From a bacterium (GTDB taxonomy: Bacteria > Patescibacteriota > Minisyncoccia > Phycocordibacterales > UBA9973): a stretch of DNA of 61,456 nt. The notes beneath the pieces were generated by a model. That model was not told where the DNA came from. It was given only the letters and a program-made list of their open reading frames with translations, and did no database searches. This document shows, in pieces, positions 6,357 to 61,456 of this stretch. Both the position numbers and the translations under genes were made by a program. Where the stretch lies: NCBI GenBank assembly GCA_021831595.1, contig JAKBMK010000022.1, positions 1 to 61,456 on the forward strand. Direction: 5' to 3'. Each line of letters begins with the position of its first letter. The first letter of the stretch is position 1.

Positions 6357-7505
6357 TTATAAAAATTGTCGCAAAGCTAGTCCAACCGCTACACTGAACT
6401 CTGGTCCACTAATCTCTAAGATAGGTGCGAGGAATGCTGGGGCTTCAGTTTTAAAGAATGGATTACTGTATAATACCTCTGTGTGAAAATTTTCTGCTGC
6501 TTTTTCTTTCAAGCCTTTGATGAGAGAACCACCTCCAGTTAAAATTACTTTACTTACATTCTTATTATACTTCTTCTGATACGCAAACACAACACCATTT
6601 GTATCAGATAAAATATATTCCACGGACAATCGAACAATATCTGCAACTTCTGGATTACTATTTAGATCAAGTCCGACATTTCTCTTCAATTTTTCTGCTT
6701 CGGTAAAAGAAATACCGAGAGATGATGCTATATTCTTCGTAATGTCAGCACTTCCTCTGTTCACAACGTGGAATACGTGGACTACTCCCTCTTCTATTAT
6801 AGAGAGCTTGGTTTTCGAAGCTCCAAAATCCATGAGTAATACTGGAGCTAAATCGTGAGAAAGAGAAGATCTAATATTACTAAAAATTTCCATCTCAAAA
6901 GAATCAGATTTTAATTCTGTCTTCTTTAAAATCTCTTGATAGCGAGTAAGAATGTCATTGTGGATAGCAACAACAAGAACTTCTGTCTTGTTTTCTGGAA
7001 CAGTAGATTTTGCTGCGGGATTCATGACATTGTTTTCAGAGGATTCTACTTCTCTTGGAAGCACAAACCAATCGAGGGTAACTTCAGTAATAGGAACAGG
7101 AATATATTTACGAGCTTCTAGAGGGATAACACTATCGAACTTGTCTTCTGTAATTTTATCAGGCAAGGTCATTGTAAAAATCAAACTAGAAGAGGAAGGA
7201 ATTGCAATAATACCAGACTTGATAGTAACATTGGATTCTCTCATGACATCAATAAGGGCCTTGACCACATCATCAGTTTGAAGATTGGTAATAGAACCTA
7301 TATCACTATTCCCGTATGGACCAAGTGAAATAGCACCGTAAGTTTCGAGTACAGCCTTCCCTGCCTTCTTTTTAAGCTGAACAACTTTGATAGCAGAAGA
7401 ACCAATATCAACACCAAGGACACTATCACCAGATTTGTCTTTACTGAAAATATCCGTAAGACTAGAAAGCCCTGTTGAAATTATACTTTTAAGTGAATTA
7501 TCCAT
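6357..7505 (-). CDS. pilM: type IV pilus assembly protein PilM (actin-like ATPase fold)
   Basis: 382 aa. GVDIGSSAIKVV phosphate-1 motif, DFGASKT and LTGGGS motifs. Confidence 0.8.
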   Translation of the reverse strand: MDNSLKSIISTGLSSLTDIFSKDKSGDSVLGVDIGSSAIKVVQLKKKAGKAVLETYGAISLGPYGNSDIGSITNLQTDDVVKALIDVMRESNVTIKSGIIAIPSSSSLIFTMTLPDKITEDKFDSVIPLEARKYIPVPITEVTLDWFVLPREVESSENNVMNPAAKSTVPENKTEVLVVAIHNDILTRYQEILKKTELKSDSFEMEIFSNIRSSLSHDLAPVLLMDFGASKTKLSIIEEGVVHVFHVVNRGSADITKNIASSLGISFTEAEKLKRNVGLDLNSNPEVADIVRLSVEYILSDTNGVVFAYQKKYNKNVSKVILTGGGSLIKGLKEKAAENFHTEVLYSNPFFKTEAPAFLAPILEISGPEFSVAVGLALRQFL

Positions 7506-7548
7506 ATTGCTACTTTCTAGTATAACATATATATAGTAAAATTAAGAA

Positions 7549-8220
7549 GTGGAAAAGGCTATTTATAACATAAAGTCTTTAATTAATTCCCTACTCAGTC
7601 TGTTATTCCCTTCAAAATGCCTCGGATGTGAAAAACGAGGAATTATTTTATGTGAAAGTTGTATAGATAATTTTAAATTGGCAGAGAGACCGACAGAAGA
7701 GAGAATACTTTCTCTATATGACTATCGAGACCCTATCGTCAAAAAAGCCATATGGCAGCTCAAATATTATCATTCTCCATACTTAGGAAGAGTATTAGGT
7801 AAATTGATTTATGATTCATTCTTGGAAGAAATAAATTCATTGCAAATGTTTTCGGCTGGGTCCCCTATCCTTGTTGTCCCCGTACCCATATCACACAGTA
7901 AAAACAAAAAGAGAGGATACAATCAATCCGAAGTAATTGCAAAAGGCTTCATATCCGCAAATCCAAATATTTTTAAAATAAAAAAAGATATTATTTATAA
8001 AAAGATGAACACCATTCCTCAAGCTCGTATAGAAAACAGATTAAAAAGACTAAAAAATGTTAAAGACTCTTTTATCATAAAAAATAGTGAAGCAATAAAA
8101 AACAAAACTGTCATTGTCATAGACGACGTTACTACCACCGGTGGCACTCTTCTCGAAATAATGAAACTCCTGAAAAAATCAGGGGCAAAGAAAATCGTTG
8201 GTTTTACTATCGCTCACTAG
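7549..8220 (+). CDS. comF: ComF family phosphoribosyltransferase-domain protein
   Basis: 223 aa. N-terminal CxxC...CxxC zinc finger (CLGC...CESC), RGYNQSE and a PRTase loop VIDDVTTTGGT. GTG start 6 nt after a TAAAAT box. Confidence 0.8.
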   Translation: MEKAIYNIKSLINSLLSLLFPSKCLGCEKRGIILCESCIDNFKLAERPTEERILSLYDYRDPIVKKAIWQLKYYHSPYLGRVLGKLIYDSFLEEINSLQMFSAGSPILVVPVPISHSKNKKRGYNQSEVIAKGFISANPNIFKIKKDIIYKKMNTIPQARIENRLKRLKNVKDSFIIKNSEAIKNKTVIVIDDVTTTGGTLLEIMKLLKKSGAKKIVGFTIAH

Positions 8221-8237
8221 TCTGATATTATATAGCC

Positions 8238-9437
8238 ATGCGAGAAACAAAAAAGAAAAAATATTGTGCGGATTGTGGAGGGGCGCAAGTGAATCATGGT
8301 ATGGTTTACTTTTCTTTATGGTTAAGTGAGACGATTGAGCCATGGACAAAATGGATGGATAATATAATCCCTGAGAGAAAACTCGAATGGATAGGACCAA
8401 TACTTGTAAAAGTTCTCACCTTTCTTCATTTGGGCAACGTAACAACAGCTCCTAATGAAAAAGACAGTTATCGTGCGAAAGTTTTATGGGAGGAAGCTAT
8501 CAGGAGAGGTATCGATATGAAAGAATTCCATTTATTTGGAATCGGTAATGATATCTTCATCTCTAGATTTAAAGGAGAAATGCGATTCTTTGACGTTCTT
8601 CCTCGCACGAAGGATTATGATCCAAGAGGACTTGAATGGATGGACAACAAGAATGAAATGAAGAAACATTTCCAAAAAGAAGGAATAAAAGTAGCTGCTG
8701 GAGGCATAGTGAATAGTGAGAAAAAAGCTTTGAAATTATTTAAGACACTAAATGCACCAGTTATCGCCAAGCCAAACTTGGGCTCTCGAAGTCGACATAC
8801 AACTACACACATATCGACAGAAGAAGAAATGAAGCGCGCGTACCACCTCGCTCACCAGCTTGCACCTTGGGTAATGATAGAAGAAGAACTCGAAGGATAT
8901 GTACACAGAGGAACTGTCATTGGAGGAAAATTTATTGCAGCACTTCGTCGAGAGCCAGCTTATGTCATCGGAGATGGAGTCCACAATGTGAAAGATTTAA
9001 TTGAAATAGAAAATAAAAATCCACTTCGCGACAACAAAATGTTCCATCAGCTTGCCCTTGATGAGGAAGCTAGAAAAGAACTCAAACATTGGGGCAAAGA
9101 TGAAAATACAATTCCGAAAGACAAAGAAATTGTGACCCTAGGACAGAAAACTAGCCGTGCGGTCGGAGGTGGTATCACAGATGTGACAGATAAAATGCAC
9201 AAAGATAACATAGAAATGCTCGAGAAAATTGGAAAAGTCCTAAACGATCCTCTCATTGGAGTCGACTTCATTATGAAAGATGTCTCAGTCTCATGGAAAG
9301 ATCAACCAAAGTGTGGAGTCATCGAATGCAACAGTGCTCCTTTCATCGATCTTCATCACTTCCCCCTTGTCGGCAAGCCACACAACGTCGCTGCTGCCCT
9401 CTGGGATATAATTTATCCAGAATCAAAAACACACTAG
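8238..9437 (+). CDS. ATP-grasp domain protein (RimK / cyanophycin-synthetase-like)
   Basis: 399 aa. DNKNEMKKHFQKEGIKVAAG...VIAKPNLGSRSRH...VMIEEELEG...GVIECNSAPF matches ATP-grasp ligase organisation. N-terminal CxxC. Confidence 0.6.
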   Translation: MRETKKKKYCADCGGAQVNHGMVYFSLWLSETIEPWTKWMDNIIPERKLEWIGPILVKVLTFLHLGNVTTAPNEKDSYRAKVLWEEAIRRGIDMKEFHLFGIGNDIFISRFKGEMRFFDVLPRTKDYDPRGLEWMDNKNEMKKHFQKEGIKVAAGGIVNSEKKALKLFKTLNAPVIAKPNLGSRSRHTTTHISTEEEMKRAYHLAHQLAPWVMIEEELEGYVHRGTVIGGKFIAALRREPAYVIGDGVHNVKDLIEIENKNPLRDNKMFHQLALDEEARKELKHWGKDENTIPKDKEIVTLGQKTSRAVGGGITDVTDKMHKDNIEMLEKIGKVLNDPLIGVDFIMKDVSVSWKDQPKCGVIECNSAPFIDLHHFPLVGKPHNVAAALWDIIYPESKTH

Positions 9438-21782: not shown

Positions 21783-21937
21783 AAACCTAGTGATAAGACG
21801 CAAAAAGCCCACCACATAGGTAGTGACCGAAGTCACTCATATCCGTTTCCAGATACGGCAGATCGTGCGACCCCATATGATGGGTTCTTTATGCACGATC
21901 TGACTAACTTTCACCATGCCTTTATCACTAAAGGTTT
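21783..21937 (-). ncRNA. candidate structured RNA of unknown class (four-helix junction)
   Basis: A 14-bp closing helix joins 21783-21796 to 21922-21937. It encloses three hairpins: 21822-21837 (6 bp; the loop reads UUCG on the minus strand), 21843-21858, and 21861-21900 (8 bp plus an inner ACCC/GGGT stem). A minus-strand TATAAT lies at 21968-21973. Confidence 0.3.
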
Positions 21938-22041
21938 AGGCTACTTAAACTATTAACTTGTAAAGAAATTATACCTTATTTTTTAAGGTCGCACCATATT
22001 AGCTCACATTTAAGTATTTGTGTAGTCGAGTTATCAACAGC

Positions 22042-47338: not shown

Positions 47339-47354
47339 TGCGGAGGCGGTGAGA
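47339..47354. repeat. proximal copy of the 16-nt att repeat (inside the tRNA-Ser 3' end)
   Basis: TGCGGAGGCGGTGAGA is identical to 15388-15403. Confidence 0.7.
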
Positions 47355-47427
47355 TTCGAACTCACGGAACCGATTAAGGTTCGACGGTTTAGTAAACCGT
47401 TGATTTAAACCACTCATCCACGCCTCC
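47341..47427 (-). tRNA. type II tRNA-Ser, anticodon ACU as read by hand (A34)
   Basis: GGAGGCG-TG-GAT..ATC-A-ACGGT-TTACTAA-ACCGT, a long variable arm (GAACC/GGTTC), GTGAG-TTCGAAT-CTCAC, CGCCTCC, and discriminator G. Confidence 0.75.
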
Positions 47428-47524: not shown

Positions 47525-47611
47525 GGAGCCATGGGAGAGTGGTTTAATCTACCTCTTTGCTAAAGAGGCGGGGAGTAATTTCCCCCGCTGGTTCGAATCC
47601 AGCTGGCTCCG
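47525..47611 (+). tRNA. type II tRNA-Ser(GCU)
   Basis: GGAGCCA...CCTCT-TTGCTAA-AGAGG, variable arm GGGGA/TCCCC, GCTGG-TTCGAAT-CCAGC, TGGCTCC, and discriminator G. Confidence 0.85.
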
Positions 47612-47620
47612 CAAAAATAA

Positions 47621-55559: not shown

Positions 55560-55587
55560 AAAATAACCTCTTAGAGGTTATTTTTTA
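55558..55587. terminator. bidirectional terminator
   Basis: AAAAAATAACCTC-tta-GAGGTTATTTTTT, between convergent genes. Confidence 0.75.
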
Positions 55588-56186
55588 TTCTCTTTAGAAA
55601 CAAATTCTTTAAATTGTTCAATATCTTTTCTAGAACCTAGTATGTGAATATTGTTTGGATCAAAAACAACAAATTCATTCTTATTCATATGGTTTGCTAT
55701 TACTGTATCAAAATTATTTTCTAAAAATTTATTATGATTATCTTGAACTTCTAAAAGTCTTTCATGAGAATTTACATATGGATTATATTTAGGTTTTTCT
55801 CTTTTATCTCTTGCTTCTGATGAATCATTATAAATATGATGGGAATTAATGATAACAGACATTAATTTATCTGCTAACCTAAAATTCTTATGATTTTCAA
55901 TTTTATCTGTAAAATAAAAACCTTCACCAAAACTTAAATTACCCTTAGAAATATAAGACCTATCAAATTCATCAAAATTCTCTCGTGTTGCATGGAATAA
56001 AATATTTTTTAATTTACTCTCTGAGAATACAGTATTTAAATATTCTGAGTACTGTTCTTTTGTGCCAATCTGAAATAATTCTGGATTTTGCTCAAATACA
56101 AAATCAACCCCTTCTTTTATTTTATTTTCAGGAGTTTTTATCTCTTCTATTTTATTCGTTTCTAAACCTGAATTATTGAAATTCAT
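55578..56186 (-). CDS. hypothetical protein, possibly ADP-ribosyltransferase-fold (polyvalent-protein ART-like)
   Basis: ORF 55578-56252 trimmed to MNFNNSG because its first 22 codons are the tRNA. LFHATRENFDEF...GEGFYFTD...NEFVVFDP resembles an H / GxGxYF / E triad. Confidence 0.35.
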   Translation of the reverse strand: MNFNNSGLETNKIEEIKTPENKIKEGVDFVFEQNPELFQIGTKEQYSEYLNTVFSESKLKNILFHATRENFDEFDRSYISKGNLSFGEGFYFTDKIENHKNFRLADKLMSVIINSHHIYNDSSEARDKREKPKYNPYVNSHERLLEVQDNHNKFLENNFDTVIANHMNKNEFVVFDPNNIHILGSRKDIEQFKEFVSKENKK

Positions 56187-56193
56187 ATATTTG

Positions 56194-56267
56194 TCCGTCC
56201 TCCACGACTCGAACGTGGGACCCTCGAGGTATAAGCTCGATGCTCTAACCAACTGAGCTAAGGACGG
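56194..56267 (-). tRNA. tRNA with anticodon UAU (Ile, AUA-reading) as read by hand
   Basis: CCGTCCT-TA-GCTC-AGTTGGTTA-GAGC-A-TCGAG-CTTATAC-CTCGA-GGGTC-CCACG-TTCGAGT-CGTGG-AGGACGG-A. Confidence 0.8.
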
Positions 56268-56325
56268 AAATAATGGTTACTCTGACCTATATAATATAAT
56301 CATATTTTAGATAAAAAGCAACAAG

Positions 56326-56991
56326 TTAATTTTCACTTAAAATATCTTGTATATATTCAAGACCTATTAAAATTTGAGACGCAATAGACTTATCTTCAAC
56401 AATAACAGAACAGGTTCCATGCCCAAACCCATTCTTATAAGAAATAGATGAAAACTTTGACTCTTTTATGTAAGAATTTCTAAATTGTGACGTCGGGATA
56501 TCGAGAGTTTTTGACCAGAACGATATCTGTTCTTTGACTTTCATATCTGAATATAAATGCAATTTCACTCTTAACTTTTCTCTAGGAACATTAAAAAATT
56601 CAAGCCATCTAATAAAAAATACTAACATTTTAGGATTTGTATTTGTAAGTGCAACAGAATAAGATTTTGTTTTAGAGCCCTCTCCCCAATACAAGAAAAA
56701 CCCAGATATTAACAAATCTCTATCTGATAAAGACTTTAATTTATCTTTAATGCCTTTATAAACCAAATCATGCTGAAGATTGCGTTTATTTTGCATCGTA
56801 TTACGATATCTCTCAATTCTCTGAGGACTAAAATCGCGCAATTCTTTTATCCTTTTTTCAGAAAGGGGCATATCAGAAAGCCATTCACTCAAAGTCCCCT
56901 TGCCAATACCAAGCTTTTCTTTTATTTGACTATAACTTAAACCTTTCTGCCTAAGTTTAATAGCTTTTTGTTTATCTAGTTTTCTTGCCAT
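56326..56991 (-). CDS. HTH protein with LAGLIDADG-like endonuclease-type C-terminal region
   Basis: 221 aa. N-terminal resolvase-type HTH (GLSYSQIKEKLGIGKGTLSEWL), then LISGFFLYWGEGSK. Confidence 0.35.
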   Translation of the reverse strand: MARKLDKQKAIKLRQKGLSYSQIKEKLGIGKGTLSEWLSDMPLSEKRIKELRDFSPQRIERYRNTMQNKRNLQHDLVYKGIKDKLKSLSDRDLLISGFFLYWGEGSKTKSYSVALTNTNPKMLVFFIRWLEFFNVPREKLRVKLHLYSDMKVKEQISFWSKTLDIPTSQFRNSYIKESKFSSISYKNGFGHGTCSVIVEDKSIASQILIGLEYIQDILSEN

Positions 56992-59211: not shown

Positions 59212-59661
59212 ATGGCAACATATATAGACAATAGAAAAGCACACTTTAATTATACCGTTGATGAAACTTTCGAAGCTGGAATAGAACTTCATGGTTTTGA
59301 AGTTAAATCAATCAAGAAAGGACAAGGTAGCATCACATCTTCTTTCTGTATAGTGCGTGGTGGAGAAGCATATATAGTAGGTATGCATATTCCTCCGTAT
59401 CAAATAAATAATACAGATCCTGGCTATGATCCGGACAGGACACGCAAACTTCTTCTTTCTAAAAAAGAGATCAAAAAATTGGCAGACAAGGATTCAATGA
59501 AAGGATTGACTCTAATTCCCCTTTCATTGTATAGTAAAGGTCCCTACATAAAGGTAGAGATAGCTGTTGCTCGTGGAAAGAAAGTTTTCGACAAAAGAGA
59601 AACAATCAAGAAACGAGAGGCAGATATAGAGATGAGTAGAGAGTATAAAACAGTTCGTTAA
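59212..59661 (+). CDS. smpB: SsrA-binding protein SmpB
   Basis: 149 aa. NRKAHFNY...EAGIEL.G.EVKS...R.RKLLL pattern. Confidence 0.95.
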   Translation: MATYIDNRKAHFNYTVDETFEAGIELHGFEVKSIKKGQGSITSSFCIVRGGEAYIVGMHIPPYQINNTDPGYDPDRTRKLLLSKKEIKKLADKDSMKGLTLIPLSLYSKGPYIKVEIAVARGKKVFDKRETIKKREADIEMSREYKTVR

Positions 59662-59666
59662 CAAAT

Positions 59667-60057
59667 GGGGATGATCGGCTTCGATGAAGTGAATCATCTT
59701 ATATATGCATGTAGAGTACGGAGGTATCTCTTAAAACTTCTTCCAAAAGACTAAGTGCAAACAAAGTCGCTTCAGTAAAATCACCTTACGCTTTTGCGTT
59801 TTCTGGTTTTGCTCCTGCTTTCGCCTAATTTAGGCCAGAGCAGTGTCTACTCTCTCGACATCCGATGAAGAGAGTGGGCATAATTTATCGGGTTACGATT
59901 TTAGAACAGCTTGCTCTAAAATCCGACAATTTAAAGCTCGTTATTTATCTTTCTTATATATTCTCTAGGATAAATAGTTAAAACCCATGAATATATTAAA
60001 CATGTAGATTTCTATAAGATTTCTCTCCACACGCGGGTTCGATTCCCGCCATCTCCA
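59667..60057 (+). ncRNA. ssrA: tmRNA (ssrA)
   Basis: The 5' end GGGGATGATCGGCTTCGA pairs with the 3' end CATCTCC-A, including G3:U70. T-arm GCGGG-TTCGATT-CCCGC. Tag frame GCA AAC AAA ... GCT TTC GCC TAA at 59757-59828. Lies directly after smpB. Confidence 0.9.
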
Positions 60058-61456
60058 CATAAAGGTACTTCTTCGGCAAAATGCGCCGCGCGCTCGCGCG
60101 CGGTGATGTCGTGGGGGCAGACGGTTTCCGAATTGGGCTTTTGAGTTAATGCGAATTCGGTGGGTGGGCAAAATGAGATAGATACGGATTTGTCACGCAA
60201 TTGTTGGTTCGTTCCAGTTTTTTTGAAATAGTCACGAATTTCAAAAAAATTGTCACAAGAAACCAATTGCGTGGCTTTTTTTATATCTAAAATCCATCCC
60301 CGCAATGGTTCGACCCAATTATTTCTCTCTGCTCGGGCGAAGTCAATTTTCCTAGCGAGAGACACCTTTTCTTTCAATAATTCGTTTTTCTTCGTTAAGT
60401 AATTTTCTTTCGGAATGTCGCCGTCTAAATAAAGAGTAACTAGATCGTCTAATTTTTTCTGCGTCTCTCGCTCATTATCTTTAATCCGCCCGAGCAGACT
60501 TCCCGACGATACTTTTATTTCGTTATTCCATTCGTCCGTTTTTCGTAACATATAGTCCGTCCAATCGTCGGGAAGCGAAATTTTTTGAAGCTGTTCTTTT
60601 AATTGAAGAACGAGCAAATCTTCTCGCAAATACGATTGAGAACATTTTCCTTTTTTCTTCGTACAACGATAATAACGATAACGACCGCCGTTACCTTTCG
60701 CCCATTGAGCAGTAATCATACTTCCGCATTCGCCACAACGAAGAAGTCCCGAAAAAGGAAAATTGTGTCCAACCTTTGTTTTGCGTGGTTTCGCTCGTTC
60801 TTTCAATCGCTTCTGCACAGCTTCAAATAAATCTGGGGAAATAATTGGCGTAAAGCTTCCAGTAAAATATTCATCGTAATGTTTGGTAAGTCCGAGATAT
60901 GATTTATTCGTCAACATTCGATACATGGAAGCATTGCCAAGTGGCGTTCCGGACTTCGTAACTATGCCGTGATCAGCAAAAAACTCCGCCAATGATTTAA
61001 AGCCGTGACGACCGGTAGCAAATTCTTCAAAAGCACGAACAATAATTTTTGCTCGCACATCGTCAGGTTCGATATTCCTCGTTTTCGAATTATTCACATA
61101 ACCAAAAGGTGCTTTTGCAAGCCACTCACCACGGCGGAGTTTTTGGCGAATACCACGATCAATATTCTGTTTAAGATTATCAGAATAATACTTACTTTGT
61201 CCGAACGCCACTTGAAGCATAAAGAGGCCTTGCGGGGTGGGTTCAAACCAAAATGTCGGAAAGCGTAAAGAAACCAGTTTTGTCGTGTCCACAGCGTAAA
61301 TGATGCGTCCTCCGTCGATACTATTGCGCGCTAAACGGTCGGGATGCCACGCGAGGATACCAACACCGTCTAAACTTTCAATCTTACTCATCATTTCGCT
61401 GAATTTCTCACGACCTGGTTTCTTTGCACTTTTCGACTCTTGAAATTCCTCAAGAA
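60012..61456 (-). CDS. large serine recombinase (N-terminus beyond window; C-terminus overlaps the tmRNA 3' end)
   Basis: ILAWHPDRLARN, GEWLAKAPFGY and CGECGSMI...YYRC zinc ribbon. The frame stays open upstream of the annotated Met to the window edge (LEEFQESKSAKKPGREKFSEMMSK). Confidence 0.85.
   Translation of the reverse strand, partial: LEEFQESKSAKKPGREKFSEMMSKIESLDGVGILAWHPDRLARNSIDGGRIIYAVDTTKLVSLRFPTFWFEPTPQGLFMLQVAFGQSKYYSDNLKQNIDRGIRQKLRRGEWLAKAPFGYVNNSKTRNIEPDDVRAKIIVRAFEEFATGRHGFKSLAEFFADHGIVTKSGTPLGNASMYRMLTNKSYLGLTKHYDEYFTGSFTPIISPDLFEAVQKRLKERAKPRKTKVGHNFPFSGLLRCGECGSMITAQWAKGNGGRYRYYRCTKKKGKCSQSYLREDLLVLQLKEQLQKISLPDDWTDYMLRKTDEWNNEIKVSSGSLLGRIKDNERETQKKLDDLVTLYLDGDIPKENYLTKKNELLKEKVSLARKIDFARAERNNWVEPLRGWILDIKKATQLVSCDNFFEIRDYFKKTGTNQQLRDKSVSISFCPPTEFALTQKPNSETVCPHDITARERAAHFAEEVPLCGDGGNRTRVWREIL
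60058..61456. mobile_element. start of a second integrated element at the ssrA 3' end (rest beyond window)
   Basis: The recombinase gene abuts and overlaps ssrA. G+C jumps sharply: my hand count is 39/60 at 60061-60120 versus 11/60 at 59941-60000. Confidence 0.55.

Follow-up and report, generated by a model that had tools for sequence, protein, structure and literature searches.

Why should the reading frame of a site-specific recombinase end inside the gene of a transfer-messenger RNA (tmRNA)? This question is raised by the right edge of the window, the 61,456-nucleotide (nt) contig JAKBMK010000022.1 of a Patescibacteriota bacterium (assembly GCA_021831595.1), where a minus-strand open reading frame (ORF) for a serine recombinase converges on the tmRNA gene ssrA and runs into its 3′ end. 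The best explanation of our data, to which we assign a probability of about 70%, is that the window ends in an integrative element that was inserted by a large serine recombinase at the very 3′ end of the tmRNA gene, that carries its attP attachment site inside the recombinase gene, and that is built from invertible modules.

The target gene was delimited to 59667-60058 by ARAGORN and to 59667-60060 by Rfam model RF00023, which it matches over its full length (model positions 1-374) with 126.4 bits. The SmpB gene lies directly upstream (59212-59661). The 3′ strand of the acceptor stem, CATCTCC, occupies 60050-60056 and the discriminator A is position 60057, after which the sequence reads CA instead of an encoded CCA. 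The recombinase ORF is open to the window edge, runs in frame for 480 codons from 61454, and ends with a TAG stop at 60012-60014. An earlier note made from the sequence of the window had placed the tmRNA end at about 60057 and the last 15 or so codons of the recombinase inside the tmRNA gene, and both statements were confirmed: the gene ends at 60057-60059 and the overlap measures 47 nt, about 15 codons. The hand counts of guanine plus cytosine (G+C) in that note, 39 of 60 at 60061-60120 versus 11 of 60 at 59941-60000, were exact on recount, and a content of at least 65% is reached by just 0.07% of the 60-nt segments of the window. The recombinase region as a whole has 42.6% G+C compared with 35.1% for the entire window, which places it in the top 1.2% of segments of the same size; this is only a modest signal, because FtsH has 41.3% G+C.

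The start of the gene was found on contig DAICBR010000002.1 of a metagenome-assembled genome (GCA_027428335.1), which contains the window and extends 1485 nt past its edge (locus L001). This contig was the sole return when SmpB and the recombinase, P0001, were looked up for an extension, and the genome is outside the species-representative collection. The first 42 residues of P0001, including the catalytic YARKST motif (residues 9-14), lie beyond the window edge. Pfam matches follow in the order PF00239 Resolvase (E = 1.4e-10), PF07508 Recombinase (E = 3.7e-13) and PF13408 Zn_ribbon_recom (E = 7.6e-14). The catalytic serine, S13, shows at least 90% conservation in a set of 42 homologues and aligns with the YLRRS motif of the SPbeta integrase, which is also the nearest solved structure, a distant one (E = 1.6e-9). 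Both the order of its domains and its catalytic motif make the protein a large serine recombinase, and an AlphaFold2 model of the homologue P0035, which bears the alternative tail described below, has long helices at residues 321-458 with moderate confidence. A scan for promoter and terminator consensus sequences around the gene gave matches no higher than the shuffled expectation. The upstream neighbors of the recombinase vary from locus to locus; no conserved protein-coding neighbor of at least 80 amino acids was found, and only small XRE-type helix-turn-helix genes recur.

The recombinase gene is flanked by an inverted repeat. Its left arm, I, begins within the last bases of the tmRNA gene, and the partner of this arm lies just upstream of the start codon, at 12427-12543 of L001 (which would be window positions 61638-61754), where it terminates in ..TTTATGTGG/TGTTATCC. 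The outer ends of the arms read CCACA/TGTGG, and the left one coincides with the final tmRNA bases: the last two acceptor nucleotides, the discriminator and two further nucleotides. This core is the presumed crossover region. Arm I also encodes ..PPTEFALTQKPNSETVCPHDITARERAAHFAEEVPLCG, and it continues inward as an imperfect repeat that is 92% identical at 60171-60194 and 100% identical at 60275-60292, interrupted on the left side by an 80-nt local palindrome (60194-60229/60238-60273). Four independent Logan contigs built with k = 31 all end at exactly 60084, 30 nt into the repeat, as expected of a repeat that collapses in a de Bruijn graph. The locus is contained in the sequencing runs SRR22746137, SRR22746138, SRR22746143, SRR13178629 and SRR13201255. 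Another Logan contig, from SRR22746143, ends at the core (window position 60058) instead; it could reflect a second arrangement in that sample, such as an empty site or another junction, or merely low coverage. By BLAST, the arm matches only itself within the window, and no other copies or remnants of the element were found there. Comparable arms of 92-155 nt (mostly 112-150 nt), 77-100% identical, flank the recombinase gene in about 57 homologous loci. Their sequences diverge between loci, which indicates concerted evolution of the two arms within an element.

The arm also carries a short G+C-rich hairpin. In the window it consists of 8 G-C pairs with a 4-nt loop and lies 26-46 nt past the tmRNA end; the earlier note had recognized the hairpin itself, and its coordinates (60083-60102) were 2 nt off. 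Of the 57 homologous arms, 49 contain a perfect hairpin of 6 or more G-C pairs, mostly 31-45 nt from the arm end (range 31-76), and it is kept in position and structure while its sequence varies, with compensatory differences. Folded whole, arm I is no more stable than its shuffles (z = -0.44), and only this local hairpin stands out. Recombinase-free sites carry a terminator hairpin at the corresponding position, and the arm hairpin probably takes the place of the terminator that the target RNA gene loses to the insertion.

The position of the core explains the unusual end of the gene. The frame of the recombinase spans the recombination core and for this reason continues into ssrA, so that insertion at a transfer RNA (tRNA) gene swaps the last 14 or so codons for antisense tRNA sequence. 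On the tmRNA side the protein of the window ends in ..EEVPLCG-DGGNRTRVWREIL, while the right flank would give ..EEVPLCG-VILSFARTYFEKNE, each followed by a stop. Past the second arm, all loci run on into the conserved sequence TNTAATNNTANCCTTTGCGCGAACYTNTTTYGAA at the start of a region termed S. This start of S was recognized beside the arm in 55 of 57 loci, and it codes for a conserved ORF tail, ..EVSxC(G/D)x(I/L)(L/I)(S/T)FARTYFE(Q/N)..; the frame through arm and core into S stays open in all 55 loci, and in most of them it meets a stop 2-8 codons further on. The variation within this tail is that of codons: GCN codons vary by 1.5 bits at the third position versus 0.1 at the first two, and in the hydrophobic NTN codons the T is invariant while the third position reaches up to 2.0 bits. 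Such variation indicates that there is a state of the element in which the S-encoded tail is translated. The predicted proteins of the family end instead in peptides such as ..GNRTRITALRRRCPNR or ..YRTRTCHPLIANEVLYQMS, which are antisense translations of the T-arm and anticodon arm with GNRT motifs.

The junction can be followed within close relatives. In the cluster of recombinases at least 90% identical to that of the window, ..LCG is followed by tmRNA antisense sequence (4 members), by EILSFARTYFEKNES, by LNS and a stop, or by QDTKSNKSIYPFI and a stop; with four different continuations, the same module abuts different DNA exactly at the core. The opposite orientation was found in locus L160, where a flipped, integrated module is arranged as tRNA-Ile (sense), core, arm, recombinase, arm, core and S tail. 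There is no assembly ambiguity in this arrangement because the two arms of L160 differ. The arms around one recombinase gene are of different types in both L160 and L161, and in L161 the S regions differ too; related elements may have traded arms and S regions with one another, unless the contigs, which were built with k = 141, are chimeric. In L162 (1837-6720) a module at least 90% identical to that of the window adjoins a diverged S-like site (ACTTAATAGTTGAAAGTTGGAAC) with no tRNA, followed by small genes (DUF5678, SEC-C) and then by a different, 516-amino-acid serine recombinase.

The family was surveyed on species-representative contigs, one genome per species, in which at least 573 loci encode a relative of the recombinase. 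A protein search returned thousands of relatives, 6580 of 8000 scored candidates having E < 1e-10; many are 60-90% identical, and all named ones belong to Patescibacteria. Among the 74 loci that were examined for their target, the 3′ end of the ORF overlaps a convergent tRNA or tmRNA gene in 61, always in the same frame. The targets were the genes for tRNA-Glu (33), tRNA-Ala (9), tRNA-Arg (4), tmRNA (3, plus 3 missed by ARAGORN) and tRNA-Ile (3), together with Gly, Ser, Leu, Val and Pro tRNAs, and relatives lie at the 3′ ends of at least 15 tRNA species as well as tmRNA. Some genomes (JBGSSJ01, CAITSL01, CAYXKV01) carry several copies. In addition, distant large serine recombinases (30-45% identical to P0001) at about positions 7000-8500 of loci L113, L118 and L129 are convergent with a tmRNA gene and lie within about 130 nt of it, which indicates that targeting of the tmRNA end extends beyond the close family. 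In a literature search of open-access text, no description of this recombinase family or of its double inverted-repeat layout was found.

The SmpB-tmRNA locus is also present in about 25 relatives with SmpB proteins 64-88% identical, and there no recombinase lies within 6 kb of it. The tmRNA 3′ end of the window, ..GGGTTCGATTCCCGCCATCTCCAC, is found unchanged in the majority of the closest of these empty sites, which shows that the T-arm and acceptor are native and were not brought in by the element. The clearest insertion was seen in locus L050, where 4.25 kb are inserted exactly after ..GGGTCA of a tRNA-Glu gene and before a tRNA-Val gene, with only TCA repeated at the other end. In its relatives L168, L203, L192 and L208 the order is tRNA-Ser(cga), tRNA-Glu(ttc), 29-51 nt, tRNA-Val(gac) and a host gene; the comparison was anchored on this host gene past the far end. 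With tblastx between tmRNA-occupied and empty loci, resumed synteny past the element was not found within 5.5 kb.

These comparisons uphold the proposal of the earlier note that a foreign element starts at the tmRNA 3′ end and belongs to a serine, not a tyrosine, recombinase: relatives without the insertion, which that note had asked for, are available, the family extends across tRNA genes, and L050 shows the insertion itself. A second suggestion, that the present tmRNA 3′ end is encoded by the element, had to be abandoned, as the empty sites are identical there and only CCACA is common to the tmRNA end and the element repeats. The second copy of the tRNA 3′ segment that was expected at the far end is likewise missing in 25 of 26 loci, and the far ends of the complete elements hold just a 3-7-nt core. 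The earlier note had counted the lack of such a repeat, together with a syntenic and compositionally typical recombinase region in related genomes, as a refutation; the repeat does not apply as a test here, because a serine recombinase is not expected to repeat the tRNA segment.

Short repeated units also occur at recombinase-free sites. In loci L088-L106, 1-3 units of about 110-180 nt lie 0-500 nt after the tmRNA, past its terminator hairpin (e.g., L092 6933-7300). At its start, each unit imitates the tmRNA 3′ end in inverted orientation (TGTGGAGATGAGC..GCGGGAATCGAAAG), and at the end of several units there is a second imitation in direct orientation (..CCCGCCATCTCCACA). The units resemble footprints or miniature inverted-repeat transposable elements (MITEs); a search of them against Rfam gave no family. 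After tRNA-Glu(ttc), locus L166 has an inverted pseudo-copy of the tRNA end with an inserted hairpin, and L209 has a second partial direct copy, CCCGATAGGGTCACAAAC.

The S sequence belongs to a second module. After its start there are usually 150-250 nt of hairpin-rich sequence with a long stem that shows compensatory changes (one pair is U-A in 8 loci and C-G in 8); the conserved region matched no Rfam family. Loci L001 (12780-12941), L017 (about 560-700) and L161 (about 2150-2346) share a further stretch past the long hairpin, a CTTCC..GGAAG hairpin followed by ..CCTCGGCATCCGCCTCGGRCATTNCCGCTAKGGCTACTCGCGCC, and the contig of the window ends inside it. The entire second module is visible in four loci, where it is bounded by its own perfect or near-perfect inverted repeats (Table 1). 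In these four complete elements the overlap between S repeats and I arms is a core of 3-7 nt, and the identical core recurs at the host junction, so that the three sites of an element share just these nucleotides: TCA, GCACAA, CCACCA or TCACAAA. Read in the direction of the tRNA, the layout is tRNA or tmRNA end, core, recombinase module (I, antisense recombinase, inverted I), inverted core, cargo module (S, cargo, inverted S), core and host DNA; that is, two back-to-back modules, each with its own inverted repeats, and three cores that alternate in orientation. The cargo ranges from about 170 nt to 2.9 kb in the four complete elements. Among the cargo genes of the family are those for the Shedu protein SduA and for a secreted beta-helix/PKD protein, and a small XRE-type helix-turn-helix gene is often present. 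No phage genes are present in the element. A direct repeat of the tRNA 3′ segment within about 3.8 kb is absent from all of the 26 loci except L030, where it is explained by the far-end site.

Table 1. Positions of the features at the recombinase end of the window, and lengths of the S repeats in the four loci with a complete second module.
Feature	Position	Strand	Basis or detail
tmRNA (ssrA), intact, proposed integration target	59667-60059	+	ARAGORN; Rfam RF00023; 3′ end matching most closest element-free relatives
Large serine recombinase gene, residues 43-522 of the 522-amino-acid P0001	60012-61456	-	Translation; Pfam; full gene on DAICBR010000002.1
Last 13 sense codons and stop of recombinase, ..DGGNRTRVWREIL	60012-60054	-	Antisense of tmRNA T-arm and acceptor
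Core CCACA, common to tmRNA end and outer ends of both arms	60055-60059		Repeat starts at 60055
Left arm I of 117-nt inverted repeat around recombinase gene, 100% identical	60055-60171		Repeat search; partner outside the window
G+C-rich hairpin GCCGCGCGC-tc-GCGCGCGGT in arm I	60085-60104		Fold; conserved in arms of relatives
Imperfect inner repeat extension	60171-60292		Repeat pairs with segments just upstream of start codon
S repeat, L072 (complete chromosome CP060229.1)			226 nt
S repeat, L050			220 nt
S repeat, L084			159 nt
S repeat, L030			41 nt

From this layout a mechanism can be proposed. The enzyme would take the duplex of T-arm and acceptor sequence of any tRNA gene as an attB-type half-site and the start of S as an attP-type half-site, and crossover would occur within CCACA at the tmRNA end. 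The pentamer CGAAC is 14-18 nt away from the core in the tRNA half, where it belongs to the T-loop, and 20-24 nt away in the S half. A circular form would integrate by attP x attB recombination, after which the junction of tRNA and I would be attL, the inverted junction of S and I an internal attP, and the junction of S and host DNA attR. Because the cores of one module are mutually inverted, recombination between them can do no more than flip it; between the outer sites, which are directly oriented, excision of the whole element would be possible. The internal inverted attP copy would let the recombinase or the cargo module invert, and this would restore or remove the conserved tail. That tail would be regained in an excised circle, in which the recombinase segment and the cargo segment would be set apart by two attP copies in inverted orientation, or in a flipped recombinase module. 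At the target, the arm hairpin would stand in for the displaced native terminator of the RNA gene. More tentatively, the integrase may be free of any directionality factor, the swap of its conserved 14-residue tail by integration, excision or inversion setting its activity or direction, and may land at nearly any tRNA or tmRNA gene and leave it undamaged; this is possible, and we hold it with considerable doubt.

In terms of known systems, the protein is similar to the large serine integrases (SPbeta SprA/YokA, Listeria A118/LI, Bxb1 and phiC31) in its Resolvase, Recombinase and Zn_ribbon_recom order followed by predicted long helices, and the element is similar to theirs in its short sites with few central bases in common and in the lack of long direct repeats at its ends. 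In the LI integrase, the motif of the zinc-ribbon domain is shifted by 5 bp between attP and attB (PMC3783163). The offset of CGAAC, a putative recognition motif that lies about 6 nt nearer the center in the host half-site than in the element half-site, resembles that shift. In contrast to these integrases, the targets are the 3′ ends of many tRNA genes and tmRNA, the attP core lies within the integrase ORF, a second inverted attP is present, and perfect repeats of 117-226 nt surround gene and cargo; compared with the large serine integrases of phages, moreover, the element is without phage genes and has no evident directionality factor.

The closest functional analogues, as far as the likeness goes, are integration-dependent switches with attP inside a gene. 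In mycobacteriophage BPs, attP lies inside the repressor gene gp33 and integration alters the C-terminus of the protein (PMC4557955). The change of C-terminus is shared with gp33, the ..ILSFARTYFE.. tail being replaced here by antisense tRNA codons; in contrast, the split gene of BPs is a repressor gene and the enzyme is a tyrosine integrase. The attP-in-gene switches of Myxococcus phage Mx8 (intP/intX) and of the Sulfolobus SSV1 integrase also belong to tyrosine integrases. The element has a second, inverted copy of its site in reserve, through which inversion could bring the tail back; none of these three systems is known to have one.

The hin gene lies within its own invertible segment, and inversion of the G and C segments swaps the C-terminal part of a tail-fiber gene. 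The element is like Hin, Gin, Cin and Pin in having its recombinase gene between inverted crossover sites, with two orientations and alternative C-terminal coding sequences. It differs in having a large serine recombinase of about 520 amino acids rather than a 190-amino-acid invertase with a C-terminal helix-turn-helix, and arms of at least 117 nt rather than 26 bp; the swapped tail is that of the recombinase itself, and the unit is mobile and targets tRNA genes. A Hin/Gin-type invertase system was accordingly rejected on its protein length of 522 residues, large-serine architecture and arm length, since only the topology is shared. An island of the tyrosine-integrase type at a tRNA or tmRNA gene was rejected on the serine-type recombinase and the lack of a tRNA 3′ repeat of at least 15 nt in 25 of 26 loci, and an IS607-family transposon on the N-terminal catalytic domain followed by Recombinase and zinc-ribbon domains and on the long inverted repeats. 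In Tn4451 (TnpX) and Tn5397 (TndX), a large serine recombinase excises a circular intermediate whose joint affects expression of the recombinase; these transposons insert at short GA-centered sites, not at tRNA ends, and are not known to have long inverted repeats around the gene. The tycheposons of Prochlorococcus are reportedly cargo-carrying integrative elements at tRNA and tmRNA genes of streamlined genomes, some of them with large serine recombinases. They belong to a different phylum, and no double inverted-repeat layout or split recombinase ORF is known among them.

Several features of the data could be accommodated by a smaller mobile unit. It is conceivable, though we consider it unlikely, that the recombinase module of about 1.7 kb is by itself a transposon similar to an insertion sequence, with 117-nt terminal inverted repeats, and that the S modules are independent MITE-like passengers or neighbors at a shared site. 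Near-identical recombinase modules beside different flanks, the almost cargo-free L030, the mixture of heterologous arms and S types in L160 and L161, and the units imitating tRNA ends after tmRNA and tRNA-Glu in recombinase-free genomes would all agree with such a transposon, as would the many homologues on contigs of just 1.7-2.3 kb, although assembly breaks at the repeats would yield short contigs anyway. The inverted orientation of the cores around a single module speaks against it, because site-specific recombination would then invert the module and cannot excise it, and so does the S start that stands beside the arm in nearly all loci and encodes the conserved tail. A resident, non-mobile phase-variation switch in the manner of Hin, which would change the recombinase C-terminus or transcription of a neighbor, is improbable. 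It would explain why the gene lies between inverted repeats, why both orientations occur, and why these yield two alternative C-termini. It does not agree with the variable presence of the element among close relatives at tmRNA and tRNA-Glu, the 15 or more tRNA targets, the genomes with multiple copies or the variable cargo; inversion may still be one activity of the element.

ssrA is a known hotspot for islands, and this, together with the 47-nt overlap of ORF and tmRNA, would suit a classical island that brought its own T-arm and acceptor and left a second copy of the tmRNA 3′ segment at its far end. We regard this as very improbable, given that the repeat identity ends 5 nt into the tmRNA, that most of the closest empty sites have the same tmRNA end, and that the far ends hold only the short core, with no direct tRNA 3′ repeat nearby in all but one of the loci inspected. 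The least probable explanation is that the repeats are assembly chimeras and the extension of the ORF into the tmRNA an accidental open frame. The source is a metagenome-assembled genome, contigs do break around the repeats, and the tRNA-derived tail is not conserved as protein; against this, the same architecture is present in dozens of independent assemblies from different assemblers, including the complete chromosome CP060229.1, unique flanks back all four junction types, 61 loci have one and the same frame, and the alternative tail is conserved in a coding fashion.

An integrative element with invertible modules remains the explanation that we favor, and a number of points weigh against it. 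No recombination product was directly observed, and the contig of the window ends about 400 nt past the right arm, before its own cargo and far end. The arms, at 117-226 nt, approach or exceed the k-mer of the assemblers, and the orientation of the modules in many short-read contigs therefore does not count as independent evidence. Recombination of attL with attP is not carried out by canonical large serine integrases, and to propose inversion by the enzyme is thus to extrapolate; the modules could instead be flipped through homologous recombination between the arms. The assignment of P-type and B-type half-sites would rest on one shared pentamer, and the tail region of P0035 (residues 458-525) has no confident AlphaFold2 model, with predicted local distance difference test (pLDDT) values below 53. 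No recombination directionality factor was identified, and no candidate for one is conserved beside the recombinase gene. In terms of a vehicle for transfer, no close relative of the recombinase was found in viral contigs.

Elsewhere in the window there are tRNA genes of kinds that the family targets. A divergent pair of tRNA-Ser genes lies at 47340-47427 (minus strand) and 47525-47612 (plus strand), with the anticodons ACT, which is unusual, and GCT. The same divergent pair occurs in L054, where the ACT tRNA is the insertion target of an element of this family, and tRNA-Ser(ACT) is likewise targeted in L061; no remnant of an element was found at the pair in the window. A tRNA-Ile(UAU) gene at 56193-56267 (minus strand) lies between a gene for a 202-amino-acid ART-PolyVal protein (PF18760) and a 221-amino-acid ORF without a Pfam match, and the same tRNA species is targeted by the family in L037 and L160. 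The segment from 55578 to 56991 has 23-26% G+C, the minimum of the last 11 kb of the window. A full-length LOOT RNA (RF03000) was found at 21822-21942 on the minus strand, with 74 bits compared with a gathering score of 46.4.

Taken as an integrative element, the locus defines a large family of mobile elements in the Patescibacteria, a group whose mobile elements are poorly known. It explains an oddity of annotation, in that recombinase ORFs ending in 'GNRTR..LYQLS' are antisense read-through of tRNA genes, and it explains assembly breaks beside tRNA genes in these genomes. The Shedu anti-phage cargo ties the family to the movement of defense islands in reduced genomes, and a compact integrase of about 520 amino acids that recognizes the conserved tRNA T-arm could interest genome engineers. 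The layout itself, with attP in the integrase gene, a spare inverted copy and repeats of 117-226 nt, represents a testable new coupling of the state of an integrase to its own structure.

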